A stretch of DNA of 52,571 bases from an uncultured Chromatiaceae bacterium (GCA_945787615.1 CALZJI010000062.1:1-52571); one strand, 5' to 3'. Counted from the stretch's first letter, positions 8,115-52,571 are shown. Notes: generated by a model not told the origin, from the sequence alone. Numbers and translations are program-made.

Positions 8115-8115
8115 A

Positions 8116-9341: not shown

Positions 9342-9639
9342 CGCAAAAATTGAATCGATAGATAATGGCGTTTGCCGGTTATCGGGTGAATTGGGTTTTT
9401 CCGCGGTGCCTAGGGTCTGGCGCGACTCGGAGCGACTGTTTACGGGATCGCGGCACGTGCTCATTGATCTGGGTGGCGTAACGCGCGCCGACAGCGCGGG
9501 TTTGGCTTTGCTCATCAGCTGGATCCGTATTGCGGAAGAAAAAAAAATATCAATTAAATTCAAGAATATACCTGGACAGTTGTTGGCGATCGCGCGGGTA
9601 AGCGGCGTCGAGGAAATGTTGCCTCAGGACCTCACTTAG
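9334..9639 (+). CDS. mlaB: STAS-domain protein MlaB
   Basis: About 100-aa STAS-like protein. The ATG at 9334 overlaps the mlaC stop, so it is preferred over the track start at 9298. Confidence 0.7.
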   Translation: MTNAKIESIDNGVCRLSGELGFSAVPRVWRDSERLFTGSRHVLIDLGGVTRADSAGLALLISWIRIAEEKKISIKFKNIPGQLLAIARVSGVEEMLPQDLT

Positions 9640-23263: not shown

Positions 23264-23911
23264 GTGCCGTTAATTTATCGCTTTAAAGATGGAAGGGCGT
23301 TCTCGGAAATGAAAAGATATTCTAATCGTCTTTACGAAGGGTTAAAAAGAATCTCGTTAGGTTCAGCGGCACTGCTGGTGGTGTTTGCCGCGGTGCCAGG
23401 TACCGGTTGGGCTGAAGTGCCAAACGCCGTTGCGCCGAAGGGTGCACACGCGGGAGACGACGTTCCTCAACCCATCGAATTTCCGCATGACGTGCACGCG
23501 AAAATCAATCAGATCAACTGCATGTACTGTCATACTTATGCGCGCCGAAGCAAGGTGGCCGGTATTCCGCCAACGAGTAAGTGTATGGGTTGCCACACCA
23601 TTATTGCGACCGATAAGGAGCGCATAAAGAAGCTCACAGAATATTGGGAGAGCAATCAGTCTCCGCCATGGAAAAAAGTGCACGATGTGCCCGATTACGT
23701 TCACTTCACCCACGAGAAACATCTTGACCGTTTTCTATTTAGTAATGAGGGGATGGACGTAGAGCGGGTCTCGGAGGTGTGTGCCTTCTGTCACGGCGAG
23801 GTCAAAGAGATGACCGTGGCGAAGAAAGTCAAATCTTTGAATATGGGATTCTGTCGGCGTTGCCATGAGGCCAATGATGGGCCTTCCGATTGTTGGAAAT
23901 GCCATAAATAG
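23264..23911 (+). CDS. actA: Alternative Complex III pentahaem cytochrome c subunit ActA
   Basis: Five CxxCH motifs are present (CMYCH, CMGCH, CAFCH, CRRCH, CWKCH), with an N-terminal hydrophobic anchor. The GTG at 23264 has an AGAGGG Shine-Dalgarno sequence. An alternative ATG lies at 23309. Confidence 0.8.
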   Translation: MPLIYRFKDGRAFSEMKRYSNRLYEGLKRISLGSAALLVVFAAVPGTGWAEVPNAVAPKGAHAGDDVPQPIEFPHDVHAKINQINCMYCHTYARRSKVAGIPPTSKCMGCHTIIATDKERIKKLTEYWESNQSPPWKKVHDVPDYVHFTHEKHLDRFLFSNEGMDVERVSEVCAFCHGEVKEMTVAKKVKSLNMGFCRRCHEANDGPSDCWKCHK

Positions 23912-23981
23912 AGCGCGAGGCTGTTTGAGGCTTTTCACAGCTAGGTTTGACGACAACAGACTAATCACAAGGTGACTTGTT

Positions 23982-26201: not shown

Positions 26202-26204
26202 AAA

Positions 26205-27059
26205 ATGTCACTGCAGAATATTCTTACTAACTGGTCACAATACCGCAAAGGCCACGAGCAAGGCGGTTTCCACGACTACGAGCACATGTGGGGCATGGCG
26301 GTCGATTTAAACAAGTGCATCGGTTGTAATGCCTGTTCCGTAGCGTGCTATGCCGAGAACAATCTCGGTATCGTCGGGAAGGATCGATTCGAAAAAGGCC
26401 AAGGGATGCATTGGATGCGTATCGAGCGGTATTGGGACGAACCGAATCTTGCTCCTGGCGTGAGTGAAGAGTTTCCGAGCCGCGGCGCCAGTTTCTTGCC
26501 GATGATGTGCCAGCAGTGTAACGCGGCAACCTGCGAGCCGGTTTGTCCGGTGGCGGCTACCTACCACACCCCCGACGGATTAAATGCTCAAGTCTATAAT
26601 CGCTGTATCGGTTCACGATACTGTTCTAACAACTGTCCGTACCGATTGCGCTACTTTAACTTCTATTCCTATTATGACTGGTCGTGGCCGGAGCCGCTTA
26701 ATATGCAGTTAAATCCCGATTTGTCCGTGCGTGATAAAGGTGTTATGGAAAAGTGTACGTTCTGTGTGCAACGTATTCGGGTGGCAAAAGATACGGCTCG
26801 TCGTGAAGACCGAAAAGTAGCCGACGGGGACGTTTACCCCGCGTGTGTACAAACGTGTCCAACCGATGCGTTGGTGTTCGGTGATATGCTGGACCCCGAA
26901 AGCAGCGTTACTAAATTGTGGAAAGCCCACCAGGTTGAGTTGGGCAAGACTAAGCAGCACAAGGACAACGAAGAGTTGCGGGGTTATCGAATATTTGAAG
27001 GCTTAAATACTGACCCATGCGTCATGTACCTCGAGCGCGTTCGCGAGGTAGAAGTATAG
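26205..27059 (+). CDS. actB2: ACIII iron-sulfur subunit ActB2 (NrfC/PsrB-type four-cluster ferredoxin)
   Basis: Cysteine groups are present: CIGCNACSVAC, CQQCNAATCEPVCP, CIGSRYCSNNCP, CTFC..CVQTCP. Confidence 0.85.
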   Translation: MSLQNILTNWSQYRKGHEQGGFHDYEHMWGMAVDLNKCIGCNACSVACYAENNLGIVGKDRFEKGQGMHWMRIERYWDEPNLAPGVSEEFPSRGASFLPMMCQQCNAATCEPVCPVAATYHTPDGLNAQVYNRCIGSRYCSNNCPYRLRYFNFYSYYDWSWPEPLNMQLNPDLSVRDKGVMEKCTFCVQRIRVAKDTARREDRKVADGDVYPACVQTCPTDALVFGDMLDPESSVTKLWKAHQVELGKTKQHKDNEELRGYRIFEGLNTDPCVMYLERVREVEV

Positions 27060-27130
27060 AAGCTTTATACACCGTTTTCGAAGATCAGGTTGAACTTTAG
27101 AACAAAAAGCCTAACGTTCCGAGGGGCAGT

Positions 27131-28567
27131 ATGAAAGACATTAACGAAGACATTAAATGGGCACAGATTAACAAGGATGTGCTGCGGAGCATGGAGAATC
27201 CGCGAATGGGGTATTGGGTGGCCGTGGCTACCTGTATAGCCATGGTCGGTTGCGCTGTTCTAGCGGAGATATGGCAGTACCGCTATGGCATGGGTTATGC
27301 CAACCTGAACTGGCCGCACATGTGGGATCTCTATATCGCAACGTTTATCTTTTGGATTGGCATGAGCCACTCGGGGACATTGTTATCAGCAATTCTCCAT
27401 ATCATCCACGCCGATTGGCGTAAACCGATATATCGTTTCGCCGAGGCGATGACCACATTTTCATTGATGACTGCTGGCTTATTCCCGCTTATCCATCTCG
27501 GGCGTTTGTGGAACATGTATTGGGTGTTGCCTTACGTGTCCGATCGCGGTATCTGGCCCAATTTTAGGTCGCCACTGGTATGGGATGCTTTCGCCATCGG
27601 TACATACCTAACCTCTTCAGCATTGTTTCTGTTCATCGGGATGATCCCCGATCTGGCCATTTGTCGTGACAACGCGCGGGGCTGGCGTAAAAAACTCTAC
27701 ATCGCGCTGTCCTTAGGTTGGCGAGGTGATGATCGGCAATGGCGAAACTTCCGTAGGACCTATCTGCTAATGGCATGTTTCCTCATTCCATTGGCCGTAT
27801 CCGTTCACTCAATCGTATCGTCTGACTTTGCGATGTCGATTATGCCGGGCTGGCACATCACCACATTCCCGCCGTACTTCGTGGCCGGTGCGTTATATTC
27901 GGGTTGTGCGGCCATCATCACCTTGTTCGTGCTACTCCGTTATTTCTTCCGATTTGAGGAGTACATGACGCTGTCGATTTTAGAGAAGACATGTAAACTA
28001 ACGTTCGCCATCGCCATGGTGTGGACGTACTTGAACCTGATCGAGTTTGCTTCCACGTGGTACGGTCACGACGTCGCTGCCAAGGAGGTTTTACTGGAGA
28101 AATTCTACGGTCCCTACGCGCCTTACTTCTGGATGATGATGTTCTGCGGTTCGGTCATGCCGTTTGCGCTAGCGTTTAGAAAGCTTCGGCGGCATATACC
28201 AACCATGTTCGTGGTGTCGCTGTTTTTAAACCTGGGTATGTGGCTCGAGCGGTGGATGATTGTGACGCCTACGTTGGCGAATGCCTATCATCCTATCGCA
28301 TTTGATACGATGTGGCCGAGTATGATTCAGTGGGCCATTGTGTTCGGCAGTTTCGGCTGGTTTGGCTTGTTGTTCTTAGTGTTTGTAAAAGTCTTCCCAT
28401 CCGTTTCTATGTACGAGGTTAAGGAAATGGTTTATCACCGACGTACGGCGGCGGGTAAAGATCCTGAGGTAGTGCTGCATCATCCGCATCGCAGATCCGA
28501 TGACGAGCCGGAACCAAGCGGCGGTACACCACCACCATCGGGTACACCAGGATTAGAAGGAGCGTAG
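27131..28567 (+). CDS. actC: ACIII quinol-interacting membrane subunit ActC (NrfD/PsrC family)
   Basis: 478-aa polytopic NrfD-like protein with a Pro/Gly-rich C-terminal tail. Confidence 0.85.
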   Translation: MKDINEDIKWAQINKDVLRSMENPRMGYWVAVATCIAMVGCAVLAEIWQYRYGMGYANLNWPHMWDLYIATFIFWIGMSHSGTLLSAILHIIHADWRKPIYRFAEAMTTFSLMTAGLFPLIHLGRLWNMYWVLPYVSDRGIWPNFRSPLVWDAFAIGTYLTSSALFLFIGMIPDLAICRDNARGWRKKLYIALSLGWRGDDRQWRNFRRTYLLMACFLIPLAVSVHSIVSSDFAMSIMPGWHITTFPPYFVAGALYSGCAAIITLFVLLRYFFRFEEYMTLSILEKTCKLTFAIAMVWTYLNLIEFASTWYGHDVAAKEVLLEKFYGPYAPYFWMMMFCGSVMPFALAFRKLRRHIPTMFVVSLFLNLGMWLERWMIVTPTLANAYHPIAFDTMWPSMIQWAIVFGSFGWFGLLFLVFVKVFPSVSMYEVKEMVYHRRTAAGKDPEVVLHHPHRRSDDEPEPSGGTPPPSGTPGLEGA

Positions 28568-28569
28568 CG

Positions 28570-29097
28570 ATGAAGAAGTACAAAGTCATGGGGCTATTTA
28601 GCAACTTTAGAGAAGCGTTCAACGTCGTTGAGGAGATAGGCGCTCAAAAGATCGCTGGCTTGACGGTGGATGACATTACAACCAAGTCGCCCATCGAGCA
28701 CCCGGAGATCGACGAGATACTCGGTCAGCGGCGATCTCATGTGCCTAAGTTCACGCTATGCGGCGCTCTTTTTGGAATGACATTTGGATTTCTTTTCCTT
28801 GCGTCTGCCCAGGCAACCTTTCTGGTGCAGCCGCAAGGTGGGAAGCCGGTGGTGCCGTTGCCGTCGAACATCGTTCTGACGTATGAGTTGTTGATTCTGT
28901 TTGGCGTGCTATTTACGCTGACGGGATTTCTTATAACGGCGCGGATGTTTACCAAACGAAGCTCGATATACAGTGAGAACGTGGGTATCGATCAAATCGG
29001 TATCGTGATTGAGGTCAATGAGAATACGATCGAACCCGCTAAGGCGCTCTTAAAGGCGCACAAAACACTGGAAATTCGCGAAGAGGTTCTGAAATGA
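28570..29097 (+). CDS. actD: ACIII subunit ActD (DUF3341-like)
   Basis: 175 aa with a soluble N-terminal domain followed by two TM helices. The operon position fits ActD. Confidence 0.75.
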   Translation: MKKYKVMGLFSNFREAFNVVEEIGAQKIAGLTVDDITTKSPIEHPEIDEILGQRRSHVPKFTLCGALFGMTFGFLFLASAQATFLVQPQGGKPVVPLPSNIVLTYELLILFGVLFTLTGFLITARMFTKRSSIYSENVGIDQIGIVIEVNENTIEPAKALLKAHKTLEIREEVLK

Positions 29098-29654
29098 AAC
29101 GAATAGGATTAATAGCGGCGGTATGTTTGTTACCCCAAGTTGCTCTGGCTTGGCCGTGGTCAACGGATATGGTAAATCAACCGAGCATTAAGCCTCAGGA
29201 AATCGACAATTGGTTTGAACAGATGCCCGCTTTCCCCGCGCGCTCGGTACCGATACAGGGGATGCCAACAAAGGTTGCGAACCGGGAGGAAGCTAAGACG
29301 CTGGCCAATCCGATACCCGCAACCGAGGAATCCCTTAAGAAAGGCCGAACACTGTATCGTATCTATTGTGCTGCGTGTCATGGGCTGACCGGAAAGCGCG
29401 ATACGCCAGTTGCAGATAAGATTGGAGCGATAGATTTAACCGACGATTACGCGCAAAGTATACTCACTGAGGGTTGGATTTTTGGCACCATAACGTATGG
29501 AAGCGTCATCATGCCAGCCTATGGCGCGCCGGCCGGTAATGCGCAAAAACGCGGGGCCAACGACTTGACCGTCGAGGAACGGTGGCACGTCGTGAACTAC
29601 GTGAGAAATGGGTTGGTTAAAGAAGCGTCCGTTCGTACGGCGGCAGCGGAATAA
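29094..29654 (+). CDS. actE: ACIII monohaem cytochrome c subunit ActE
   Basis: It has a signal peptide, an MVNQPSIKPQE motif and a single CAACH. The start overlaps the actD stop (ATGA). Confidence 0.8.
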   Translation: MKRIGLIAAVCLLPQVALAWPWSTDMVNQPSIKPQEIDNWFEQMPAFPARSVPIQGMPTKVANREEAKTLANPIPATEESLKKGRTLYRIYCAACHGLTGKRDTPVADKIGAIDLTDDYAQSILTEGWIFGTITYGSVIMPAYGAPAGNAQKRGANDLTVEERWHVVNYVRNGLVKEASVRTAAAE

Positions 29655-29688
29655 CTTGGTACTAAAACAATAATACCAGAGGGTTATT

Positions 29689-30747
29689 ATGGAAAACTTT
29701 GGGAATTGGTCCATCTTAACGACGAATTTTCTGATCGTTCTTTATATCGCGCTTAACGGGGTGACGCTCGCGTCGGTATTGCACCTTTGTAACGGGAAGT
29801 GGCGTTTTAAAGTGCGACGGATCGCGGTGGCAATGGCGTCGCTTTTTCCGCTAGCGTTTATTTTACTTATTATCGTCTTGGCAAACGGCGAGCACACTTT
29901 CCTCTGGATGGCTGAAGCGGCCGATGGCGGAGCTCACGGCGCCGGTGGTGAAGAGCATCACCTACCAGGCTGGCTGAACTACGACTTCTTGGTGATGAGA
30001 GAAATCATTGGTTTCTTCATTATCGCAGGATTGTATACGTTGTTCATTAAATACCAGCATGAGAGCGAAATAGATAGCTCGTACGCGGCTCAACGGCGGT
30101 TTAGAAATATTGCGCTTTTGATACCGTTCTTCTACGTTACTTATGGAAGCATGGTGGCTTGGGACTTTGAGATGACGCAATTCGCCCAATGGCATAGTGC
30201 GAGCTATGCATTCTACCATTTCCAAAGTAACTTCATCATGTTCCTTGCGTTCTTTACGGTGCTCCTGTTTTTCTTGAATCGCTCGGGCAAGTTGGTCAAA
30301 CCGATAGAGCCGTATATATTTAACTATTTAGCTCAATTTATGCTGGGTATGACCATCTTGTGGACGTACCTCTATTTCACGCAGTACCTCATCATGTGGT
30401 ACGGTCGGTTACCGGAAGAAATGAATCGTTACGACGCGATGATGTTGGATGGATTCGGTCCTCTGTGGTGGACGTTCCTTGCGATGAAGTTCATTATTCC
30501 GTTCTCGACATTAGCGATTACCCCAAATCGTCATAATCCGCCAGTTATCGTGGCTGTGGCATGTAGCATACTGATTGGAACCTGGCTTGAGAGATACACA
30601 TGGATTGCGGGATCCGTGGACAGCCAGTACTACCACTTTCCGATGACGTCATTTACGGATATCGCCGTTACGGTAGCCGTTTTTGGGGTGGCGTGGTTTA
30701 TCTGCAAGTGGACATTTACACGCTACGGAATCATAAAGGCTTCGTAA
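29689..30747 (+). CDS. actF: ACIII second NrfD-like membrane subunit ActF
   Basis: 352-aa polytopic protein and the last gene of the operon. Confidence 0.75.
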   Translation: MENFGNWSILTTNFLIVLYIALNGVTLASVLHLCNGKWRFKVRRIAVAMASLFPLAFILLIIVLANGEHTFLWMAEAADGGAHGAGGEEHHLPGWLNYDFLVMREIIGFFIIAGLYTLFIKYQHESEIDSSYAAQRRFRNIALLIPFFYVTYGSMVAWDFEMTQFAQWHSASYAFYHFQSNFIMFLAFFTVLLFFLNRSGKLVKPIEPYIFNYLAQFMLGMTILWTYLYFTQYLIMWYGRLPEEMNRYDAMMLDGFGPLWWTFLAMKFIIPFSTLAITPNRHNPPVIVAVACSILIGTWLERYTWIAGSVDSQYYHFPMTSFTDIAVTVAVFGVAWFICKWTFTRYGIIKAS

Positions 30748-42019: not shown

Positions 42020-42428
42020 GTTTAGAAGATACAAGAACTACTGAGGCGATCGCAAGTACAAGAGCGGTTTTTTTTGTGATGTGGGCGTCATGGTTGAGGT
42101 CTCGGTAAACAGTAACGGACGTACCTTTGCGAAACCGTCTCTATAAAGAGGTCCACGAAAAAACCGCATTACACGCACCAATCCAGCACGCGTTTTAGTT
42201 TATAATTTATTATTAAGATCTGCCTTCTGGAACGTCGAAAGTGTAGGGAAACGTTGAGTTGAATGTGGTAATCAATAATTAGAACCAGCCTCCGGACACC
42301 TGTTTTTCTGCTTTTTATTCCGTTTCGTCAGTCTATTTCCAACCGGGTTAGCTAACAGAACTCGGCAAGTGTTGATGATGATAGGGCGACGGACGCCGAC
42401 CGGGCATAAAACCATACTTTAATAGAGG

Positions 42429-42464
42429 CGATAGGCCGTTCGTCGATAGGCCGTTCGTCGATAG
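42429..42464. repeat. Tandem direct repeat, 15-bp unit CGATAGGCCGTTCGT x 2.4
   Basis: Two perfect units at 42429-42443 and 42444-42458 are followed by a partial CGATAG. Confidence 0.9.
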
Positions 42465-42600
42465 CTTGCTTTACGTGTTAAACGTTTTTTTAATTGTTGG
42501 CGCGTATAAGAGGTGGCAGTAGTTGGAGAGACGAGAATTAAGGCGTTGTTTAATATATTTTTGATGCGAAGTATTTCCCACCTTGACGGCGCCCCTTATT

Positions 42601-42633
42601 AACGTTTAACATTTAGATATATTGTTAAACGTT
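42601..42633. promoter_or_regulatory. Inverted repeat AACGTTTAACAT-N9-TTGTTAAACGTT, a candidate operator upstream of the RHH gene
   Basis: The arms match at 11 of 12 positions and are centred about 96 nt upstream of the ATG at 42713. A third copy, TGTTAAACGTT, lies at 42476-42486. Assigning it a regulatory role is inference. Confidence 0.35.
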
Positions 42634-42712
42634 TCGTTGGTGAAAACGTAGGCGGCTCCCCAAGGGCTAGAAACGTTGTCGCTAACGCGCTCCGAAAAGA
42701 AGGGTAAGTACT

Positions 42713-43180
42713 ATGAAAAAAGCGGAAAACACCATGCGCGAACAGGCGCAACTTCGAGCCGAATCCATGAGAAACAAAGCGATGGCCGCGGCAAAAAAGC
42801 GAAAAGAAGAGTTTCTCGGCGCGAGGGTACCAAAAGAACTGCGCGATAGGGTCATCGAGGAAGCGAAAGAACAGGGTATTTCTGTGTCGATTCTGATCAG
42901 GAAAATTCTTGAGGAAGCCTTTAGTGATCAAGTTAGCGTGTCGAAAAGATACCAACATGGCGCTGCGCAACACAATTCCGTGTCTAGCGAGCGGAATATG
43001 GGGCCAGAGGCATTCCCTTCAGTATTGGGCTGGGAGGAAATCAAGCTAAACAGACAAGTCGCGTGTTCGGGCTGTGGTAGAACTTTGCAGCCCGGCGGAC
43101 AGGTAACGGTGGGTTTATCGGCAACGGGAGGAAGTCCGGTTGTGCTGTGTAATGGCTGTAAAGGATCTATTGAATATTAA
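42713..43180 (+). CDS. Ribbon-helix-helix (CopG/Arc-like) domain protein with a C-terminal CxxC...CxxC zinc ribbon
   Basis: The RHH pattern is FLGARVPKELRDRVIEEAKEQGISVSILIRKILEEAF. The C-terminus is CSGCGRTL-x24-CNGCKG. An AAGGG Shine-Dalgarno sequence precedes the ATG. Confidence 0.6.
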   Translation: MKKAENTMREQAQLRAESMRNKAMAAAKKRKEEFLGARVPKELRDRVIEEAKEQGISVSILIRKILEEAFSDQVSVSKRYQHGAAQHNSVSSERNMGPEAFPSVLGWEEIKLNRQVACSGCGRTLQPGGQVTVGLSATGGSPVVLCNGCKGSIEY

Positions 43181-45488
43181 TTGCACTACTCTAATTCGGT
43201 TAACGCCTTGTGCCTCGCGTTGTTTGCGTCGGCCCAAATTTCGGGTTGGGACGATCATACTATTATGTGCGTTGACGGTATCGTGGGTGGCACAAGGCGC
43301 TGATCAGCGTGCGATCGATGCAGCGTTTGCGGCTAACCCACTGCATTCGCGCGATGATACGTCGAATCCGGCGAGCGATCGTTTGCCGATGCTCGCTCAG
43401 TTGTCGGTGACGGGAACGGGGGCTTTGGGGGAGATGCGCCGCGAAGTTGTGGCGGAGTACGCAACTGAAATTTTGGCTCAGAAGCATGCACAACGTCTGC
43501 GTGGCTCGTGGAGAGATGTTGTTAAGGTCGAGCCGGACGTAAAAAACATGACACGCCTGTATATTGGCCCCTTTGCCAGTCGGGAAGACGCTAATGACGT
43601 AGGGGCTCAGCTACGAGTTTACGGATTACTTTACAAAGTCGCTCCAGGCGATAAGCAAGGTGGTTATACCGTTCGGCTAGGGGCCTATAGAGATGCGTCG
43701 GTAGCAACTCGTTTCCAGCAAGAAGTCAATGAGTTGGAAATCGGTGAGGCGAAAAAAGATCTGGTCGCGGTCACCGTTTACCAGGTGGCGCGTTATACCG
43801 CCCCGGAGCCAGCTCCAGCGGTTACCGAACAAAGCGAAATACCCGTGAGCGGTACGAGTGATCGCGTTTCCGAGGCAGGTGGAATTGTCCCCGGAACGGG
43901 CGCTGCGGCGCAAGTCGTCCCAGGATTGGGGATTGAGGGACTTTTTGTGGAGCCAACCCCGTCGGAGTCTGAGCGACAGATGACCGAACCAAAACCAGCA
44001 CGGGTTGGCACGACAATAGACGTAGTGCAAGGGCTGGGGCTTGAGAGTCTTTTTGTTGATGAGGTTCCCCTTGATGACGACCTGGACGAAGGCGAGCCAG
44101 AAGCGGAAGAGAGATCGAAATTCTGGTCTGATTTGACATGGAGCGGATATTTGAAGAATGAAACGGCCTATCGCTTTCGCGAGCCCCGTTCGATAACGAA
44201 AATTCGCAACATTCTCTACCTTGATGCTCAGTACCCCTTAGTCTCCAATGTCGATCTATATGCGGCGGGTTGGGCGTATTACGATCTGGCTTATGATCTG
44301 TTTAATTACGATACCATTGCGGCTCGCTCCGAGCGAAATGTCGAGGAGCCGCTGGTTTTCGTTGAGCGTTTGGATGAAGAGAAGGACTCCCCGGTAGCCG
44401 AGATTCGGGAATTGTATGCCGACATCTTCTTGGAGGGGTTCGATATACGTATTGGGAAGCAATTCATCGTATGGGGCGTCCTCGAGGGCGTAAGAATCGT
44501 TGATGAGATCAATCCGGTAGATTTTCGCGAGCTCATATTGCCCGATCTACTGGACTATCGTATCCCCTTGTGGTCGCTCAAACTTGATTATTTCCGCGAC
44601 AACTCGACCTTTGAGCTGGTATGGATTCCTGACCTGCGTTTCCACGAACCGGCACCGCGTGGGTCCGAATGGGAGATGTTGCAAGACGTCTGTGCCGCTC
44701 AGTCACCGGACATACTGTGCATAGAGTCAACACCGGAGTCGTGGACGCTGGAAGATTCCGAGATCGGGGTCAAGGTAGATACCTACCTGTGGGATACTGA
44801 GTTGTCCTTTAGTTATTTGTACACTTGGGACGACTTCCCCGCTGTTTTTCGTGCTGTGCGTGTCGATACGACAGATGTTCCGCCGGCTTTCTTTCCCACT
44901 TATACGCGGATTCATATGTTTGGGACTACGGCGGTAAAGCAGTTGGGACGTTACATCGTGAAAGGCGAGTTAGCCTATGTGACCGACAAATACTTTGGTA
45001 CGAGGAACACAGTCGATCGTGACGGTAATGGTTTTCTCGATGACGACGGCGAGTTACAGCGAGACCATATCAGGTGGGGATTAGGTATTGAATTTAACTT
45101 ATGGGGCATGGATATCGCACCAGGAATCACCCAGTGGTACATCATCGATCACGATGATGCGATTATGCAAGACGAATACGACACCTCGGTTAACATCTTT
45201 ACGCGGAAAGAATTTCCGGAGCAAGCCGCCGTGTTTCAATTCTTAGGCATTTATCTTGTCAATCTCGAAGAGTTATTGTTAAAGCCGAAGGTTACGTTTC
45301 AGATAGACGACCGGTTGCAGTTAGGTGTCGGCCTCGACCTGTTTTACGGGCGTAAGTCTGATTTTGGCGCCAACGAGGCCTCGCAATCAGCGACCAGTAG
45401 TTTTAACCCTGCGGCGGCACGCGCACAGTTTCTCGGTAACTTTCACGACAATGATCGGATATTTTTTGATTTTAAATACTCGTTTTAA
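43140..45488 (+). CDS. Outer-membrane protein with two N-terminal SPOR-like repeats, an acidic/Pro linker and a DUF1302-like beta-barrel
   Basis: SPOR-like segments are TRLYIGPFASREDANDVGAQL and YTVRLGAYRDASVATRFQQEV. Barrel signatures are WSGYLKNETAYRF and IRIGKQFIVWGVLEGVRIVDEINPVDF. The C-terminus FDFKYSF ends in an aromatic residue. The start is uncertain: a GTG at 43140 with a GGAGG Shine-Dalgarno sequence, or a TTG at 43224 just before the signal-like RRPKFRVGTIILLCALTVSWVAQG. Confidence 0.6.
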   Translation: MCCVMAVKDLLNINCTTLIRLTPCASRCLRRPKFRVGTIILLCALTVSWVAQGADQRAIDAAFAANPLHSRDDTSNPASDRLPMLAQLSVTGTGALGEMRREVVAEYATEILAQKHAQRLRGSWRDVVKVEPDVKNMTRLYIGPFASREDANDVGAQLRVYGLLYKVAPGDKQGGYTVRLGAYRDASVATRFQQEVNELEIGEAKKDLVAVTVYQVARYTAPEPAPAVTEQSEIPVSGTSDRVSEAGGIVPGTGAAAQVVPGLGIEGLFVEPTPSESERQMTEPKPARVGTTIDVVQGLGLESLFVDEVPLDDDLDEGEPEAEERSKFWSDLTWSGYLKNETAYRFREPRSITKIRNILYLDAQYPLVSNVDLYAAGWAYYDLAYDLFNYDTIAARSERNVEEPLVFVERLDEEKDSPVAEIRELYADIFLEGFDIRIGKQFIVWGVLEGVRIVDEINPVDFRELILPDLLDYRIPLWSLKLDYFRDNSTFELVWIPDLRFHEPAPRGSEWEMLQDVCAAQSPDILCIESTPESWTLEDSEIGVKVDTYLWDTELSFSYLYTWDDFPAVFRAVRVDTTDVPPAFFPTYTRIHMFGTTAVKQLGRYIVKGELAYVTDKYFGTRNTVDRDGNGFLDDDGELQRDHIRWGLGIEFNLWGMDIAPGITQWYIIDHDDAIMQDEYDTSVNIFTRKEFPEQAAVFQFLGIYLVNLEELLLKPKVTFQIDDRLQLGVGLDLFYGRKSDFGANEASQSATSSFNPAAARAQFLGNFHDNDRIFFDFKYSF

Positions 45489-45583
45489 ACGAGCTACGGT
45501 TACCTTGCATAGCGTGCGGGACGCGCTTTTTAATCCTCCTGTGCGTTCGCTAAGCGTAAGCCGATTTTACGAGAGGGAACTTT

Positions 45584-48121
45584 ATGTTAGCTAAACTCTA
45601 TTCGCTCGTCTCGCGCGCACCGCTTGCAGTGGTGTTAGTCGTGTTGGGGGTAACCGTTTTCTTTGCTATGCAGCTCGGCAACCTTCGCTGGGAAACGGAC
45701 GCACGCGTATACATGCCGAAGGGTCATGAGGCCATTGTGTACGATGAGAAGGTCGAGGCGTTATTCGGTGCTAAGGATTCGCTCATTATCGGTATCGTTA
45801 ATGAGGATGAGGGGATCTTCAATAAAGAGACGTTGGCGCGTATCGCCCGCGTTACAGAGAAGGTTGCTGCCCTAGACGGCGTACTTGCCAACCGTCTAAT
45901 CGATGTGGCATCGCTGTCGACCGTCAGCTTGTTTGTCGGTTCAGAAACCGCTATTGGCGCGCAGCGACTTATGCCCGCGGTGCCGACCACGCCAGAGGAA
46001 ATCGAGGCGTTAAAACAAGCCGTTTTCGCCAATGCCGACCTGCTTGTTGGCAACATGGTCTCTGCCGACGGTAAAGCCGCGATGATCCGGGCTAAACTAA
46101 AGGAAGGCAACGATAGTCGTTATCAAACCTATTGGCAAATCAAGGGGATTATCGCTGCCGAAACCGGCGATACGTCGTGGGGCGGCGCGGACTGGCAAGG
46201 CGGCGGTGATTGGCAACAGAATCAGTTGTCACAAAAGAAACAGGACAATAGCAACGAAGGCGGCGCTGAGTGGGACGGGGGTCCAGACGCTGGTGCTGAA
46301 CAAACCGATAGGCCGCAGAGTCCGACATCCTGGGTGAACAAAGAAGCGGGTGAAAGTGAAAGCTATGACACGTTTTTCCTCGCTGGGCGCCCGGTCATCG
46401 AAGTCAGTTCCGGTTTAGAAGCATTGGCCGATCTGAAGTTGATGATTCCCTTATTGCTGGTCGTTATCGCTGTTACGCTGTTCGCCGTTTTTCGAACCCT
46501 ACGCGGCGTGGCGCTGCCTCTCTTTGTAATGGCCGCCAGTATTATTTGGACCATGGGTATGATGGCGGTTCTTAATGTCCCTCTTTACACCATCTCGACA
46601 ATGTTACCTGTCATCCTCGTCGCCGTCGGTGTGGGTGACGGTATTCATCTGTTAAGCAATTACTACGATAACGTATTGCGTGATCCCCATCGGGAAAGCC
46701 GAGACATCGTTTTAGAGGTGATGAATGACCTGGGTCCGCCCTTGATTACGACCTCGTTGACCACAGCGATGGGTTTTCTAGCGCTTTGGTTCGCGGAAAT
46801 GCCGCCTTTTAAGATCTTTGGCCTTTTTACCGTTCTAGGTATTCTCGTTTGTTGGTTTTTGTCGGTCACGTTTCTACCCGCCGTATTGTGTTTACTGAGG
46901 CCAAAAGTTGGGGGGTATCTGCAAAAACGGCAATCGATGCGGGTACGCGATGAGCAAAACCGCTTGGTGAAAGGCCTTGTGCTATGGGGTGACAGGGTTG
47001 TTGAGCGTAAGCGTGTATTTACCATCGGCGTCCTCATTTTAGTCGTGGTCGCAACGTTAGGTGCGAGTCGTTTATATGTTGACTCCAGTTGGATGAGTGA
47101 TTTTCGCGACGACAGCGATGTCGCCGTGGCTAACGATCTCATTAACGAAAAGTTTTCGGGAACCATAACCTTGAACGTCGTCGTGGACGGCAAGCAAGAC
47201 GGTGCCTTGAAATCCCCGGAGCTGCTGCAGGCGATTGAGGCGTTGCAGGAGCATGTCGAGTCATTGCCGTATGTCGGCGACACGCTCTCTGTTGTGGATT
47301 ATCTAAAGAGTATGAATAAAAACCTACATGCGGCTGCGGAGGAGTTTAACGTTCTCCCGGAAACGCACGCGCAGATTGCGGAGTACCTGTTTTTGTTCTC
47401 GATTTCAGGGCGGCCCGAAGAGCTGGACGAAGTTGCGGATTTTGGTTATCGACAGGCCAATGTCAGTGTCCAAATCAAGACGGACCGTACTATGCAACTG
47501 AAGACGGTTATCGACTCTATAAATGAGTTTGTAGAGACTCGTTTCGCGGGCTTGGATGTTGATGTGAATTTAGCGGGGTCAGGAAATAATTCTTACGTAT
47601 GGGCCGATCTATTAATCGATAGCCAAACCTCGGCCATCGTGATCTCAAAGCTCGGAATTTTGATACTGGCTACCTTGTTGTTTCGGTCCTTTATTACCGG
47701 TGTCTTCGTCGTGGTGCCTGTGACCTTAACGACGTTGTTGATGGGTGGGTTTTCTGGATTGTTCAGTATACCGCTTGATGTTTCCACAGTATTGGCCGCA
47801 GGTGTCGCTATCGGCGTAGGTGTTGACTACGCCGTTCATTACATCTTTCGTTACAAACGCGAGTTTAAGGCCACCGCCGATCATCTGCACGCTACCCGTG
47901 CCGCCATGCGCGGCGTCGGAAAAACGATTGTTTTTAACGCCGTTGTGGTAACCGCAGGTTTTTCGGTATTGTTCTTCTCGTTTTTTCCACCGCACGCCAA
48001 GCTCGGCAATTTCGTCGCAGCCTACATGGTCTTAAGTTGTGTAATCGCTCTTCTTATTCTTCCGATTCTCTTTTCGATCGGAAAGAGAAATCATAGTGCA
48101 TCAGTGGCTCAGCGTGTTTAA
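45584..48121 (+). CDS. RND-superfamily exporter of the MMPL/HAE3 (COG1033) type
   Basis: 845 aa. Two six-TM bundles each follow a large periplasmic loop. MMPL-like segments include LPVILVAVGVGDGIHLL and AAGVAIGVGVDYAVHYI. Confidence 0.85.
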   Translation: MLAKLYSLVSRAPLAVVLVVLGVTVFFAMQLGNLRWETDARVYMPKGHEAIVYDEKVEALFGAKDSLIIGIVNEDEGIFNKETLARIARVTEKVAALDGVLANRLIDVASLSTVSLFVGSETAIGAQRLMPAVPTTPEEIEALKQAVFANADLLVGNMVSADGKAAMIRAKLKEGNDSRYQTYWQIKGIIAAETGDTSWGGADWQGGGDWQQNQLSQKKQDNSNEGGAEWDGGPDAGAEQTDRPQSPTSWVNKEAGESESYDTFFLAGRPVIEVSSGLEALADLKLMIPLLLVVIAVTLFAVFRTLRGVALPLFVMAASIIWTMGMMAVLNVPLYTISTMLPVILVAVGVGDGIHLLSNYYDNVLRDPHRESRDIVLEVMNDLGPPLITTSLTTAMGFLALWFAEMPPFKIFGLFTVLGILVCWFLSVTFLPAVLCLLRPKVGGYLQKRQSMRVRDEQNRLVKGLVLWGDRVVERKRVFTIGVLILVVVATLGASRLYVDSSWMSDFRDDSDVAVANDLINEKFSGTITLNVVVDGKQDGALKSPELLQAIEALQEHVESLPYVGDTLSVVDYLKSMNKNLHAAAEEFNVLPETHAQIAEYLFLFSISGRPEELDEVADFGYRQANVSVQIKTDRTMQLKTVIDSINEFVETRFAGLDVDVNLAGSGNNSYVWADLLIDSQTSAIVISKLGILILATLLFRSFITGVFVVVPVTLTTLLMGGFSGLFSIPLDVSTVLAAGVAIGVGVDYAVHYIFRYKREFKATADHLHATRAAMRGVGKTIVFNAVVVTAGFSVLFFSFFPPHAKLGNFVAAYMVLSCVIALLILPILFSIGKRNHSASVAQRV

Positions 48122-49070
48122 TAAAATTTTTGCAGTCGTTCTGGTTCTAACTTGCGCGATCCTCGGTGCTGGGGTCGCGCCGGTGATGGCGCAATCCGAT
48201 TCATTCAAGTGGAGTCTTTCGCCCATTATTGGTGTGCATAGCCCTGTACTCGAGCAATTAAACGAGGAAGCGTTTAAGGCGCCCCTTGTCGGTTTTGGAA
48301 CCATTCGTGGTGAGCCGGATTCGCCAACGGCCGGTGAAAGCTTCGAGATTCCTTTTGGTTTTGATAACGATCTCGATGATATTGGGCTTAATGCTAATGT
48401 CGGTCTTGAGTTTCAATGGGTGCAGAGCACAAAGCACATATTCTTAATGGGGTTGAGTACCTGGGAGGGCTTTACTCAAAACACCGTTCCTGCGCAAGTA
48501 CCCCTACAGGGCGAGTTACGTGACACCGACTATGACAGGCGTGGCAAAATGTCCTATAACGAATTCTATCTCGGCTGGAAATATAATTTCTTTTCTCGCC
48601 CTAATCGATATCGTTTCTACACGCGCGCCACGCTTAATGAATTATTTGATATTGATTTTAGAGAAGAGCATGTTTTCTCTATAAACGGCGGAGACCTCGA
48701 TGGCGTAAAGCGCATTATCGTCGTAAAAGGACAAACGACCGGTACGCTTATGATGCAGCTTGGGTTTGGCGGTGAGTATTTTTTGAAAAAGAATATATCG
48801 GTGGGATTAGAGGCGGGTTACTTGTTTTCTTATCGACCGTTTCAATTGGTTAATACCAGTTCTGATGACGATCTGCAATTAGGTGATGACGTCACGTTCC
48901 ATTTACCCATTCAGCCAGCCTCACGCGATTCGCCGCTAGGGAACATACCCGCCGATACGGATCCCTCTCAGGATTGGACGGACCCGTTGGTACCTTTCCC
49001 GACGCCCCGTGACATGGACTTACGTTTTGATGGTTGGAAAGCCGCGTTTCGTATTACGGTTTATTACTAG
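48096..49070 (+). CDS. Hypothetical secreted protein, probably an outer-membrane beta-barrel
   Basis: It has a signal peptide (FAVVLVLTCAILGAGVAPVMA-QS) and alternating aromatic/polar strands. The C-terminus FRITVYY ends in an aromatic residue. GTG starts at 48096 or 48114 overlap the RND stop. Confidence 0.45.
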   Translation: MHQWLSVFNKIFAVVLVLTCAILGAGVAPVMAQSDSFKWSLSPIIGVHSPVLEQLNEEAFKAPLVGFGTIRGEPDSPTAGESFEIPFGFDNDLDDIGLNANVGLEFQWVQSTKHIFLMGLSTWEGFTQNTVPAQVPLQGELRDTDYDRRGKMSYNEFYLGWKYNFFSRPNRYRFYTRATLNELFDIDFREEHVFSINGGDLDGVKRIIVVKGQTTGTLMMQLGFGGEYFLKKNISVGLEAGYLFSYRPFQLVNTSSDDDLQLGDDVTFHLPIQPASRDSPLGNIPADTDPSQDWTDPLVPFPTPRDMDLRFDGWKAAFRITVYY

Positions 49071-49204
49071 TGCTACGACAATGCAATAGGCGACCTTTTT
49101 TACTGTCTGGAACGACGATAACTACGGCAACGGAAGTGATAAAGAATTTCTTAGACTTTTTTAGTAACAGCGATAGAGCCCGTCGTGCCCGCGGCCCGTG
49201 TCAC

Positions 49205-51952
49205 ATGTTACCCTCAAAACAGAGATTGCTTTTTTCGGCGTTGGCCTTGTTGCTGTCAGCGCTAGTGATCGCCAATAGCGTCTACGCGCAAATGGCGACG
49301 CAGTCACCGCCCACATCCATGGGCCAAGTAAATCAATTAATGGATAAAGGACGGACTGCACTGGATGAGGGGCGATTGCCGGACGCTTTACGTATTTTTC
49401 GACAAGTGCTGCTTATTAAGCCCGATGAGGTTGAGGCCCATTACCGTATCGGATTGGTTTTTTGGCGGCAACGCCAGATTCAAGAAGCATTTGTATTCTT
49501 TAATAAAGCAATCGAGATAGCACCGGAAAATGCATCGCTGCACCTTTCCTTGGCGGGCTTCTACGAACAGGCCTCTCTCTTTGACAAAGCCGTTGAAGAA
49601 TATCGTAAAGTCATTGTCCTGGCGGAAGGCACCGAAATGGCGCGTTCGTCGGAAAAGCGGCTTAACTTGACTCTGGTCAAGCAATACGTGGCTGCGGCTG
49701 ATGTCGATACGGCGTTACAGATTCTCAATTCCTTGCTGGAAGAGTATCCCGACGATCCCCGCGTACTTCAGCACTTGGGGTTTGCCTATTCGCTTGCCAA
49801 GCGGTATGAGGCGGCGGCCGCTATCTATGAAAGCGTATTGGAGAAGGAGCCTGAGAATGATTCAGCTCACATGAATCTGGCTAACGTATATATGAAAATG
49901 GGCGACGTGCCCAATGCGATAACGCATTTCGAGAAGGCCGCGGAACTGTCGCCGCAGCCGTCGCGGCGTACCGAGGCTAAGATCAGGTTGGGGCTTCTTG
50001 GGTCGACGCAGGCGCAGAGAAAGGGTGACAATAAGCTCGCGATTCGTGAACTCGAAAAAGTCTTGGAAATCGATCCGAACCAAGTGACGGCGAGCAACCG
50101 CCTTGCGGCGATACACCGCGAGGAGGGTCAATTGGATGAAGCGGAAGACGTATTACTCGCCGCCATACGATCTACTCCAGAAAATCTTGATGTCCGTCTT
50201 AATCTCGCTTCACTGTACTTAGAGAGCAGAAACGTCGTTGATGCCGTCTGGCAGTTGGATCTTATAATGAGTCAGGGAGCGGATACACCTCAAGCGCAAC
50301 AAGCGCGAGGGATGATGAACCAGCTGAGCGGCACAATGGGAAACCAACTAACGGCGGTAAGGGCCACCGCGAAGCAAAAGAATGAATTAAAACAAACGTT
50401 ATTTATGGACTCGAATAACGCGATGGCTCACTTTAATTTGGGCGGAATCTACATGCGGCAACGTAAGTATGATGAAGCCCAGGTGGCCTTTGAAAATGTG
50501 CGCCGTATCAATCCAAGAATCGCATTGACCTATGTCAATTTAGGTGAAATCTACGCGCAGAAAGGCGAGTTCGCGGCGGCCGCCGATGCATTTGCGACGT
50601 ATATGTCGTTGGAGACGAACTTATCCAAAGTTGAGCGGTTACAGCCTGCGTACGCGAGCGTATTAGGCCAGCAGTTTTACAAGGAAGGGAACTACGATGC
50701 GGCACTGAATTATTTCTCGAGAGTCTTGGAGTTGAATCCGAAGGATAACCTTGCCCGCTTCTATACGGCAGTTATCTATTCACGCCGACTGCAGCTGGAG
50801 GACGCGGTGGAAGCGTACGAATTGCTGTTGGAGACTGCCCCAAGTCATATGGGCGCTAGATCCAATCTCGCCCGCATTTACGAACAATTGGGACAGGAAG
50901 AGGATGCGTTATCGCAATACCGGCGCGTTGCCATGAATGTTGAGGAAGGTGCGGCAAAAGAAACAGCCGACAACAGGATTAAATATCTACAAAGAAGTAT
51001 TAACGGCCTAACGTCCAGTGCCGGTTATTCGCTGACCTTCGACACCAATAACAACCTGAGTGAGCACGATCCGGAAGAGGAGTATTGGTCGAGCCTCAAT
51101 GCTAATTTTACCTACCGGTATAAATACCGCGATGACGTTCGATTAGGTGCGACTTATAGCCCTACCTACTCAACTTATCACATTGGCCAATATGACTACA
51201 TCAATCATAACCTGAGCCCATTTATTGGTTACGGTGATCGGCGTAGTACCTATACCGCGCGGTATACGTATAACAAACTCTCAGGTTTGCTTAATGAGGA
51301 AAGCGTGAGCGAGACTAACACGTTTTCTCTAGACTGGAACAAGGAACTGAACCCGGAAAGAAAATTGCTGCTCAATCTTTCATATCGGAAATTTGAATCG
51401 GCGAGCAGTAGCTTTTTTAACGCCAATACGGCGGCGCTGAGCCTCACGTATTCACGTAATCTTGGCCGCCGTTTGACAGACAGTACGGGGTATACTTTTT
51501 CAAATAACGACAATGAGAATCCGGATAACGCGGATGCTGCGTTCATGAGCCACACGCTGAATTACCAAATTAACAAATGGTTTTCTCCCAAATTCTCCCT
51601 GGGCATAACCGGTTCTGCAAGCCTTACGGACTACCTTAATCCCGACCGATTTGCGGTGCCCGAAGAGAAGCGAAGTAATACTTTTTTCTCATTGAGAGCT
51701 TCGTTTAACTATCGCGTGAATGACCATTTTCGGTTGTTTGGTAATGCCGGATATCAGCAGAATGATTCAAATCTGCCGGTATTTGTTCAAGTTACGGATG
51801 ACCAAGGACGTCCGATCGTCGATCCTGAAACCGGTCTACCGGTATTTAGACCGGTAACGGGAGAGGACCTGATCGGCGTGCCAATACAAAGTGCGTCATT
51901 GGGTTCCTATCAAAAGGTAATCGCTACGTTTGGCCTAGCTGTCAGTTTTTGA
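49205..51952 (+). CDS. 915-aa TPR-repeat protein with a ~320-aa C-terminal beta-barrel-like domain
   Basis: It has a signal peptide (LLFSALALLLSALVIANSVYA-Q). TPR-like repeats continue for about 560 aa and are followed by a Tyr/Asn/Ser-rich region with alternating strands. The C-terminus is FGLAVSF. The ATG at 49205 is preferred over the track start at 49034. Confidence 0.7.
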   Translation: MLPSKQRLLFSALALLLSALVIANSVYAQMATQSPPTSMGQVNQLMDKGRTALDEGRLPDALRIFRQVLLIKPDEVEAHYRIGLVFWRQRQIQEAFVFFNKAIEIAPENASLHLSLAGFYEQASLFDKAVEEYRKVIVLAEGTEMARSSEKRLNLTLVKQYVAAADVDTALQILNSLLEEYPDDPRVLQHLGFAYSLAKRYEAAAAIYESVLEKEPENDSAHMNLANVYMKMGDVPNAITHFEKAAELSPQPSRRTEAKIRLGLLGSTQAQRKGDNKLAIRELEKVLEIDPNQVTASNRLAAIHREEGQLDEAEDVLLAAIRSTPENLDVRLNLASLYLESRNVVDAVWQLDLIMSQGADTPQAQQARGMMNQLSGTMGNQLTAVRATAKQKNELKQTLFMDSNNAMAHFNLGGIYMRQRKYDEAQVAFENVRRINPRIALTYVNLGEIYAQKGEFAAAADAFATYMSLETNLSKVERLQPAYASVLGQQFYKEGNYDAALNYFSRVLELNPKDNLARFYTAVIYSRRLQLEDAVEAYELLLETAPSHMGARSNLARIYEQLGQEEDALSQYRRVAMNVEEGAAKETADNRIKYLQRSINGLTSSAGYSLTFDTNNNLSEHDPEEEYWSSLNANFTYRYKYRDDVRLGATYSPTYSTYHIGQYDYINHNLSPFIGYGDRRSTYTARYTYNKLSGLLNEESVSETNTFSLDWNKELNPERKLLLNLSYRKFESASSSFFNANTAALSLTYSRNLGRRLTDSTGYTFSNNDNENPDNADAAFMSHTLNYQINKWFSPKFSLGITGSASLTDYLNPDRFAVPEEKRSNTFFSLRASFNYRVNDHFRLFGNAGYQQNDSNLPVFVQVTDDQGRPIVDPETGLPVFRPVTGEDLIGVPIQSASLGSYQKVIATFGLAVSF

Positions 51953-52051: not shown

Positions 52052-52571
52052 ATGCCTGTACCAGAGACTATCAAATCCGAATTCAACGATGTTGTCGCGT
52101 TTCACCGTTGTTACTGTCTCGATATCGCCATGGGTTATCGTGTGGCAAAGGCGCTGATGCGTGAGATGGGCGAGGACATGCGTGACCTTAAACACGTGAT
52201 CGCCTATGCGGGGGCACCGACATGCGCCGTCGATGCAATACAGAAAATAGCCGGTTGCACGCTGGGTAAACGAAACCTTATCTATACCAATACTGGGAAA
52301 TCCGTTTTTGCGCTACAGAATACGCGATCGGGCCGCACGGTTCGAGCCTATGTGCATTATTGGGACACCTTCGATCAACTCGCGTTTCGTGCTCAGCGTG
52401 AAAAAGCGAGCGCCGCAACGACTCCTGGAAAGAAAGCGGAGTTTAAAGAGATGTTAGACGCGAAAATCGAGGAGATTCTAACGACCGCGGAGGGAAGCTT
52501 GTTTAGGATTACCGAGTCGACCATGGCAACGCCGCAAAAGTCGGGAAAATTTATTTCCGAGCGATGTGATT
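52052..52571 (+). CDS. FmdE-family protein, with the 3' end outside the window (not in the supplied ORF track)
   Basis: My own translation from the ATG at 52052 runs to the window edge with no stop: MPVPETIKSEFNDVVAFHRCYCLDIAMGYRV...APTCAVDAIQKIAGCTLGKRNLIYTNTGKSVFAL. The FH..xC..xAxGYR and C.VDaIQ...GCT.GK.NL patterns are typical of the FmdE domain. Confidence 0.7.
   Translation, partial: MPVPETIKSEFNDVVAFHRCYCLDIAMGYRVAKALMREMGEDMRDLKHVIAYAGAPTCAVDAIQKIAGCTLGKRNLIYTNTGKSVFALQNTRSGRTVRAYVHYWDTFDQLAFRAQREKASAATTPGKKAEFKEMLDAKIEEILTTAEGSLFRITESTMATPQKSGKFISERCD

Follow-up and report, generated by a model that had tools for sequence, protein, structure and literature searches.

A 52,571-nucleotide (nt) stretch of DNA from an uncultured Chromatiaceae bacterium (GCA_945787615.1, CALZJI010000062.1:1-52571; referred to here as the window) was found to contain a compact cluster of five plus-strand genes between positions 42713 and 51952. 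The genes encode a protein with a ribbon-helix-helix (RHH)-like domain and four invariant cysteines (the RHH-Cys4 protein), a DUF1302 outer-membrane barrel that carries a SPOR domain, a resistance-nodulation-division (RND) transporter of the MMPL/sterol-sensing-domain (SSD) branch, a small predicted outer-membrane barrel, and a protein in which tetratricopeptide repeats (TPRs) precede a predicted barrel (the TPR-barrel protein). Comparison of related loci indicated that the three barrel genes occur together and in a fixed order. Judged from gene content, the invariant core is the three barrels and not the RND transporter, because 8 of 51 loci were without the pump. The reading that we tentatively favor, and to which we would give slightly less than an even chance, is that the cluster is an autoregulated operon whose products move a small hydrophobic or amphiphilic compound (a lipid, an isoprenoid or a polyketide-like substance) across the envelope. 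The five genes of the cluster were as follows.

42713 to 43180, plus strand: RHH-Cys4 protein, 155 amino acids (aa), cytoplasmic, presumed autoregulator of the operon
43152 to 45488, plus strand: SPOR-DUF1302 barrel, 778 aa; SPOR domain at nt ~43449-43616 and DUF1302 match at nt ~44220-44987
45584 to 48121, plus strand: MMPL/SSD RND transporter, HAE3-like, inner membrane, 845 aa
48096 to 49070, plus strand: small predicted outer-membrane β-barrel of an undescribed family, 324 aa
49205 to 51952, plus strand: TPR-barrel protein, 915 aa; TPRs at nt ~49316-51001 and predicted barrel at nt ~51002-51949

Related loci were collected with two seeds. A search with the small barrel in 185,579 species, each represented by a single genome, led to 25 loci, all from metagenome-assembled genomes (MAGs), and a search with the RHH gene in metagenome contigs led to 80. 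Components of these loci, not all of which are phylogenetically independent, were scored by tblastn. The loci obtained with the small barrel were labeled as uncultured Gammaproteobacteria (including Candidatus Tenderia and groundwater and biocathode bins), together with two from Nitrospirota. In all 51 loci with complete downstream coverage, the DUF1302 gene was followed by the small-barrel gene and then by the TPR-barrel gene. An RND gene was located between the DUF1302 and small-barrel genes in 43 of the 51, and an RHH gene was directly upstream in 47. These results bore out the co-conservation of the five genes, the lack of which would have refuted the proposal of an earlier reading of the window from its sequence alone (the sequence-only reading). 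The identities of individual components fell as low as 49% for the RND transporter, 28% for the small barrel, 23% for the TPR-barrel protein and 37% for the RHH-Cys4 protein, and one Nitrospirota contig kept the three barrels amid different flanking genes. Since homologues were present in the same order across dozens of contigs, the five genes are more than chance open reading frames (ORFs). In the variants without an RND gene (L038, L043, L063, L068, L073, L088 and L104, and L029 from Nitrospirota; loci are referred to by number), the DUF1302 gene was followed directly by the small-barrel and TPR-barrel genes. A further Nitrospirota contig (L030:9977-10912) contained a small-barrel relative of 22% identity in another neighborhood without DUF1302 or TPR-barrel genes, which marks the edge of the family and of its context.

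The same gene order could reflect inherited synteny without any joint action of the products; the loci all come from related uncultured lineages, and the flanking DrrAB, tsaD and moaE genes are also syntenic. We consider this barely credible, given that the order is held at component identities as low as 24 to 37% and also in a Nitrospirota contig whose flanking genes differ, that the genes overlap or are tightly spaced behind a common putative operator, and that accessory genes come and go around the invariant core.

The gene boundaries were compared with the gene calls of contig CAMYMM010000003.1 (GCA_947259325.1, 83.8 kb; locus L031), which spans the window. The five plus-strand ORFs (42713-43180, 43140/43152-45488, 45584-48121, 48096-49070 and 49034/49205-51952) agreed with called products of 155, 778, 845, 324 and 915 aa. 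The arrangement on one strand with overlaps or short gaps, as the sequence-only reading had described it, was thereby confirmed, as was the overlap between the RND stop and the small-barrel start, which amounts to 26 nt; in most other loci the genes likewise overlap or lie just a few bases apart. This compactness counts in favor of the proposed operon. A GTG start at 43140 had been suggested for the DUF1302 gene, but the codon at this position is TTG, and the contig call starts at ATG 43152, giving a 29-nt overlap with the RHH gene. The TPR-barrel gene most likely starts at ATG 49205, because a clean signal peptide (MLPSKQRLLFSALALLLSALVIANSVYA/Q) results; this start leaves a gap of 134 nt, and the small-barrel gene is not overlapped. 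A repeat-containing intergenic region of 678 bp was present upstream of the cluster, at 42035-42712, as claimed.

Family scans and structural models were in agreement with the predicted content of the five proteins: an RHH/zinc-ribbon-like protein, a SPOR barrel, an RND transporter, a small barrel and a TPR-barrel protein. The second gene product exceeded the gathering threshold of DUF1302 (PF06980; 66.8 bits against 23.2; E, 2.6e-18), with profile positions 89 to 365 of 541 covered, and this threshold was also exceeded in relatives of the window locus. A SPOR domain (PF05036; 38.8 to 41.9 bits against a gathering threshold of 21; E, 1.2e-9) was detected after the signal peptide; together with an acidic linker, these two make up the N-terminal periplasmic extension. 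The C-terminal end is ...FKYSF. SPOR domains were also present in the DUF1302 proteins of L004, L006 and L007, and regions similar to the SPOR extension of the window were detected by tblastn in L034, L035 and L036. With a mean column identity of 57%, the DUF1302 protein was the most conserved protein of the cluster. For the DUF1302 family, the literature predicts a barrel of 18 strands that resembles AlgE, and neither a solved structure nor a biochemical function is on record (PMC13499233). Between the DUF1302 and RND genes, the following element was detected.

45511 to 45527, plus strand: terminator-like hairpin, then TTTTTAAT, in the 95-nt DUF1302-RND gap

Matching gaps in relatives measured 15 to 61 nt. 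The hairpin and its T-run could act as a putative attenuator; terminator-like sites in the region numbered 14, against 13.5 expected from shuffled sequence, which is chance level.

The small barrel was modeled with AlphaFold2 from a 34-sequence alignment. The model was almost all β, with several very long hairpins (predicted local distance difference test score [pLDDT], 92.8; predicted template-modeling score, 0.82). A Foldseek search against the PDB returned outer-membrane barrels only (Pla/OmpT, OmpA, OmpW, CarO and FadL), and the small barrel is without a close solved relative because the query-normalized template-modeling score was at most 0.37. A Sec signal peptide precedes the barrel, whose last residues are ...TVYY; in the Pfam and NCBIfam scans nothing was matched at threshold, and OMP_b-brl gave only a weak match. 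The family is rare: 38 clusters were obtained from a set of 5.8 billion proteins and, at an E value of ≤1e-3, 106 matches from 1.84 billion representatives, none of them named.

The model of the TPR-barrel protein, built from a four-sequence alignment, placed helices at residues 38 to 599 and strands at residues 600 to 914 (pLDDT, 83.6). The protein is thus modeled as a signal peptide, approximately 16 TPR hairpins (aa 38-599) and a C-terminal barrel of ~14 to 16 strands (aa 600-915) that ends in ...AVSF. Many TPR matches were obtained in Pfam, with more than 40 cross-matching TPR families. The C-terminal ~320 residues matched no Pfam family at threshold, giving weak matches to OMP_b-brl and BBP2_2, and a profile search by sequence detected no relative of the barrel domain in the PDB. 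Matches to the full model in Foldseek were dominated by TPR proteins and were uninformative on the barrel; in homologue searches with the TPR half, generic TPR proteins swamped the results and three true full-length relatives were obtained. TPR-barrel proteins of ~1320 aa with an extra N-terminal region were observed in L024 (10826-14785) and L026 (6986-10930). All three secreted proteins of the cluster possess a Sec-type signal peptide and a C-terminal aromatic residue, and the signal peptides and terminal Y or F are conserved in the small-barrel and TPR-barrel families. On these models, the small protein and the C terminus of the TPR protein are predicted integral outer-membrane β-barrels; the barrel predictions of the sequence-only reading therefore survived structure prediction. 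Descent of the three barrels from one another as paralogues was rejected (hhalign probabilities of 1 to 8%).

The sequence-only reading had likened the TPR-barrel protein to the exopolysaccharide porins BcsC and PgaA or to the Slam translocators. The likeness holds for the architecture but the family tests failed, with generic TPR matches only. A long periplasmic TPR superhelix that is attached to, or works with, an outer-membrane barrel is shared with BcsC, PgaA and the AlgK-AlgE pair, and an export porin for exopolysaccharide would also fit the report of an AlgE-like DUF1302 barrel (PMC13499233) and the weak matches to BBP2_2, a putative beta-barrel porin family. However, the curated models were far from being reached (BcsC, 53.4 against 858 bits; PgaA, 47.8 against 366.65; PrsT, 161.6 against 312.2) and were matched by the TPR part only, none of these families includes the barrel domain, and Pfam calls and ORF listings of the flanks with identified genes contained no adjoining gene for a glycosyltransferase, a synthase or a cyclic di-GMP receptor. 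An exopolysaccharide porin is consequently regarded as very improbable.

The RHH-Cys4 protein combines an RHH-like domain at residues ~35-70 with a C-terminal CxxC...CxxC zinc-ribbon-like domain. Its best RHH match in Pfam was RHH_5, at 21.3 bits against a threshold of 26, and Arc, HicB and CopG likewise remained below threshold; a profile search of the PDB gave weak matches (E, ~0.1) to the RHH proteins MazE7, AvtR, Arc and DinJ. In an alignment of 20 sequences, residues R30, K31, E32, G36, A37, R38, V39 and P40, which make up the strand-like motif RKE..GARVP, were invariant, as were four cysteines (C118, C121, C146 and C149). Where present, the RHH gene lies directly 5' of the DUF1302 gene, and a 4-nt overlap is frequent in relatives. 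The region upstream of the gene was examined for repeated motifs.

42476 to 42633, plus strand: putative promoter/operator region with three exact copies of TGTTAAACGTT

The copies were located at 42476-42486, 42601-42611 (inverted) and 42623-42633, with no others in the 52.6 kb. The latter two form the 11-nt arms of a palindrome with an 11-nt spacer, and this palindrome (42601-42633) overlaps a sigma70-like site, TTGACG-18-TAACAT, at 42583-42612. The exact 11-mer was not conserved in other loci, but a degenerate core, GTWTAAC, was. All 23 loci examined had this core or its complement, GTTAWAC, in the 150 nt that precede the RHH gene, at a density of 12.8 per kb there versus 0.275 per kb elsewhere in those loci (~46-fold). 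The copies usually formed an inverted or tandem pair beside a TTGAC(A/G) box. Paired copies were almost confined to the region upstream of the RHH gene and were missing from three loci without this gene; L024, L026 and L027 had neither the RHH gene nor paired operator motifs. The presence of the palindrome upstream of the RHH gene in all of the loci examined points to an autoregulated operon, and the RHH-Cys4 protein is probably its autoregulator, a role that the sequence evidence supports without proving it. At 42429-42458, in the same intergenic region and ~140 nt before the operator palindrome, a unit of 15 nt (CGATAGGCCGTTCGT) is perfectly duplicated in tandem and is followed by CGATAG.

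The third gene product was assigned to the MMPL/SSD branch of the RND transporters by Pfam (MMPL, 114.6 bits against 20.5, in two stretches; Sterol-sensing, 53.8 bits; Patched SSD, 42.7 bits). Matches in the PDB were weak and limited to the SSD region (NPC1-like proteins, Dispatched, HpnN and MmpL4/5). A low-complexity insertion rich in Trp, Gly, Gln and acidic residues (Asp/Glu) is located at the end of periplasmic loop 1, before transmembrane segment 2 (aa ~196-262; nt 46169-46370), and appears to be disordered. The insertion is present in all family members but variable in length, a variation that takes the transporters from 828 to 1180 aa. A DUF1329 gene hidden in the wide DUF1302-RND space of L097 and L103 was considered and ruled out, as these loci simply encode a longer RND transporter (1180 and 973 aa, respectively). 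The best relative in plasmid records, a pump of 27% identity from an Acinetobacter nonribosomal peptide synthetase locus, was not informative.

The genes around the core varied between loci. A LolA_like gene (PF17131) was present in 41 of 57 loci with sufficient upstream sequence. The LolA_like proteins of relatives scored 142.9 bits, and the one copy scanned against DUF1329, that of L001, also exceeded the cut-off of that family (27.8 against 23.1 bits). In 38 of the 57 loci, a secreted protein of ~300 aa with a Sec signal, designated protein X, was encoded upstream of the LolA_like gene (examples are L003:3633-4583 and L012:3608-4558; L024 has three copies). Protein X carries the conserved motifs YFQTIITD, DESFVR, WVGQ and FGFxSY; family scans and a PDB profile search detected no Pfam, NCBIfam or PDB relative. 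In at least 11 of 42 loci, the LolA_like gene was immediately preceded by an O-methyltransferase gene (PF08100 and PF00891), the recurrence of which hints at a methylated hydrophobic cargo.

L023:3332-4342, L014:2997-4007, L025, L037, L057, L062, L063, L065, L068, L085 and L101: O-methyltransferase gene

The window contains neither protein X nor, by tblastn, any DUF1329 or LolA-like gene, and the absence of a DUF1329-like gene that the sequence-only reading had remarked upon was thus confirmed. The window belongs to a clade with L004, L006, L007, L034, L035 and L036, in which LolA_like, X and O-methyltransferase genes were all missing nearby and the DUF1302 protein has the SPOR extension instead. 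The gene content suggests that the LolA_like/DUF1329 partner was lost or relocated in this clade. Downstream of the cluster, a convergent DrrAB-type ABC-2 exporter directly followed in 36 of 44 loci with room, including the window contig, and the DrrA model was passed (333.8 against 312.45 bits).

L031:14585-15346 (just past the window end), L011:13789-16114 and 34 other loci, convergent: DrrAB-type ABC-2 exporter

Precomputed Pfam calls for four flanks contained no membrane-fusion adaptor, glycosyltransferase or synthase.

From the gene content, the co-occurrence and order of the trio and the conserved palindrome, all of which were observed directly, and from the modeled barrel and TPR folds, we infer the following route. 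The RHH-Cys4 protein would bind the TGTWTAACA palindrome overlapping the -10 element and would repress the operon until its Cys4 domain senses a signal. The MMPL/SSD transporter would use the proton-motive force to extract its substrate from the inner membrane at the outer leaflet, in the manner of HpnN and the MmpL pumps. The three barrels would assemble into an outer-membrane complex to which export is directed, and the TPR superhelix of ~560 residues may reach into the periplasm as a scaffold or docking arm that replaces the missing membrane-fusion adaptor, its length being sufficient for a scaffold from the pump to the complex. In most relatives, the LolA_like carrier, together with protein X, would ferry the substrate. 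In the window clade, where the carrier is missing nearby, the DUF1302 barrel may be tied to peptidoglycan through its N-terminal SPOR domain and long linker. LolA-fold proteins carry acyl or hydrophobic ligands. LppX, a protein with a LolA-like fold, functions beside MmpL7 and DrrABC, and the combination of LolA_like carrier, O-methyltransferase and DrrAB neighbors parallels this set and fits a small hydrophobic cargo; DrrAB could then be a third transport component. The characterized pumps of the MMPL/SSD branch move lipids, HpnN acting on hopanoids and MmpL7 on phthiocerol dimycocerosate (PDIM), and AmeD acts on monoterpenes (PMC6394551, PMC11539658). A broader version of the proposal, which we regard as possible but doubtful, is that the invariant trio is an unrecognized three-barrel machine supplied with hydrophobic cargo by interchangeable feeders (the RND transporter, LolA_like with X, and perhaps DrrAB).

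Several observations weigh against export of a small hydrophobic molecule by this operon. The core can do without the pump, which 8 of 51 loci do not encode. Its best NCBIfam match, HAE3 (TIGR00921), reached 206.7 bits against a cut-off of 351.9, and the models for HpnN (TIGR03480; 109.8 against 751.85), BstA (26.9 against 1400) and MmpL3 (21.6 against 1400) were likewise not reached. The RHH assignment is below threshold by sequence, and part of the conserved upstream motif may simply be the -10 element. No biosynthetic genes are at hand, and the hosts are all uncultured MAGs. DrrAB is convergent and, with 62 to 100% identity across loci, far better conserved than the cluster proteins, so that its presence may represent only retained or housekeeping synteny. 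Finally, the conserved secreted protein X of the relatives could itself be the cargo, in which case the cargo would be a protein.

The last point leads to a system for protein secretion or display, in which the three barrels, helped by a LolA_like chaperone, would translocate X or anchor it, much as Slam or two-partner systems do with their cargo, and the RND transporter would be accessory. Protein X is encoded upstream in two-thirds of the loci scored and in triplicate in L024, paired operator motifs also precede its gene in L003, and the seven gammaproteobacterial loci without an RND gene all retain both X and LolA_like. The TPR-barrel protein resembles Slam (TPRs plus a DUF560/SlipAM barrel) in having N-terminal TPRs and a C-terminal barrel of comparable size, TPR_Slam was matched at 54.6 bits, and one of 23 TPR-barrel relatives gave a weak SlipAM match (E, 0.0046). 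Against this stands the window itself, which, like its clade, is without X and LolA_like within reach. X has no lipobox and no lipoprotein gene adjoins the cluster, the window barrel gave no SlipAM (PF04575) match even at an E value of ≤10, and the TPR_Slam match is a generic TPR cross-match. The window protein has ~16 TPRs, in contrast to the two to three of Slam, and no MMPL/SSD pump is known to transport proteins in the folded state. Secretion or display of X is thus judged unlikely.

The closest kind of known system is the four-gene module of DUF1302, DUF1329, BNR (COG4447) and COG1033 RND proteins, represented by AmeABCD of Castellaniella defragrans, Sama_1588-1591, and PP_0765/0766 with PP_2018/2019 of Pseudomonas. 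Export of envelope components or efflux of monoterpenes has been proposed for this module (PMC6394551, 10.1101/2020.07.04.188060). It shares with the present cluster the adjacency of a DUF1302 barrel and an MMPL/HAE3-type RND transporter (in the window and in 43 of 51 loci) and the absence of a membrane-fusion adaptor, and in relatives of the window a LolA-superfamily carrier joins the pair. In contrast to the module, the window is without DUF1329, and its relatives carry the shorter LolA_like PF17131. Precomputed Pfam calls of L001, L003, L004/5 and L031 contained no BNR/Ycf48-like (COG4447) protein, although X could be a very divergent propeller. The cluster also differs by two extra invariant barrel proteins, one with ~16 TPRs, by the SPOR fusion of the window clade and by a dedicated RHH-Cys4 regulator in place of LuxR/AraC neighbors. 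A link to the DUF1302/DUF1329/RND theme is drawn because most relatives carry an upstream LolA_like gene, and by gene content the cluster appears to be a variant of the DUF1302/DUF1329/BNR/RND theme and not a member of the canonical module, as two of the four defining genes fail. Literature searches on the components yielded no description of the five-gene set and hence no sign that it is an already characterized operon. The proposal of an undescribed envelope export system thus stood in that the set is real and conserved; it needed qualifying in that the set is tied to a DUF1302/LolA-superfamily/RND theme and that export is our interpretation.

Other lipid transport systems offered partial parallels. 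Mycobacterial PDIM export (MmpL7, DrrABC and LppX) likewise combines an MMPL-type RND transporter, a DrrAB-type ABC-2 exporter and a carrier with a LolA-like fold. All of its parts serve to bring a very hydrophobic lipid to the outer layer (PMC11539658). The likeness is at the family level only and concerns another type of envelope; DrrAB is convergent in the present loci, the barrels have no mycobacterial counterpart, and no lipid biosynthesis genes are adjacent to the cluster. HpnN (hopanoids) and BstABC (sterols) resemble the system in that an SSD-containing RND transporter passes a membrane lipid toward the outer membrane, BstC being a TPR-like partner; they differ in that their curated models were far from being reached and that neither has barrel partners.

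Transport in the opposite direction was also considered, namely, the uptake or processing of hydrophobic nutrients, as discussed for DUF1302/DUF1329 proteins of Pseudomonas and for an MMPL-LolA-like protein of Thalassolituus. The Pseudomonas proteins have been discussed in connection with Tween 20 and fatty esters, and mutants in DUF1302/DUF1329 genes show a defect that is specific to fatty esters (10.1101/2020.07.04.188060). In Thalassolituus oleivorans, TOL_3187 links MMPL and LolA-like domains with an uncharacterized outer-membrane protein and very hydrophobic compounds, and n-C28 induces both TOL_3187 and a neighboring porin-like protein (PMC6304351). The resemblance, drawn from description only, is limited by the presence of both domains in one alkane-induced protein in that organism. 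Characterized RND pumps, on the other hand, transport outward, the hosts of the present loci, going by their labels, include the reported electroautotroph Candidatus Tenderia, and no catabolic genes adjoin the loci whose flanking genes were identified. Uptake is accordingly held to be quite unlikely, and outward transport of a small hydrophobic molecule is retained as the preferred reading.

The remainder of the window was examined for its relation to the cluster. Immediately downstream, the sequence-only reading had placed the remnant of a miniature inverted-repeat transposable element, but this was ruled out: the sequence after 51952 is coding and has no inverted repeats.

52052 to 52571, plus strand: FmdE-like gene (PF02663; E, 1.4e-26), truncated where the window ends; product of 203 aa on the contig

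This gene starts 99 nt past the TPR-barrel gene and ends at ~52663 on the source contig (L031:13957-14568), where it is followed by a convergent gene for a DrrB-like ABC-2 permease. The FmdE-like family also follows the TPR-barrel gene in L023, L009 and L037, and the gene is possibly a sporadic sixth member of the cluster or a mere neighbor. Elsewhere the window encodes core metabolism, as had been stated, with Mla, his, trp, tat, alternative-complex-III-like, COQ7 and speD-like genes. A complete MlaFEDCB phospholipid-transport operon was observed at 6269-9639, and the alternative-complex-III-like cluster, at 23264-30747, comprises a multiheme cytochrome, a molybdopterin-like subunit and an NrfD-like subunit; no evidence ties either to the five-gene operon. 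An Rfam scan of the window detected no RNA family.

Modules of DUF1302, DUF1329 and RND proteins are widespread and have mutant phenotypes, yet a mechanism and a solved structure are lacking. In the loci described here, the DUF1302 barrel is in obligate partnership with two further barrel families, both new and rare. A probable regulator and an operator-like element, together with inner-membrane and periplasmic components that would act as exchangeable feeders, lead to testable hypotheses on the composition of the complex and on its core parts. Among the hosts are Tenderia-like electroautotrophs. Their surface chemistry matters for electron uptake, and a hydrophobic molecule exported there would be of interest; a link of the operon to this process is speculation. 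If the proposed route is correct, it would represent a Gram-negative pathway for lipid or metabolite export built without a membrane-fusion adaptor, and in the window clade the three-barrel machine would be tethered to peptidoglycan through SPOR. The long-unexplained DUF1302 family would thereby gain a mechanistic context.

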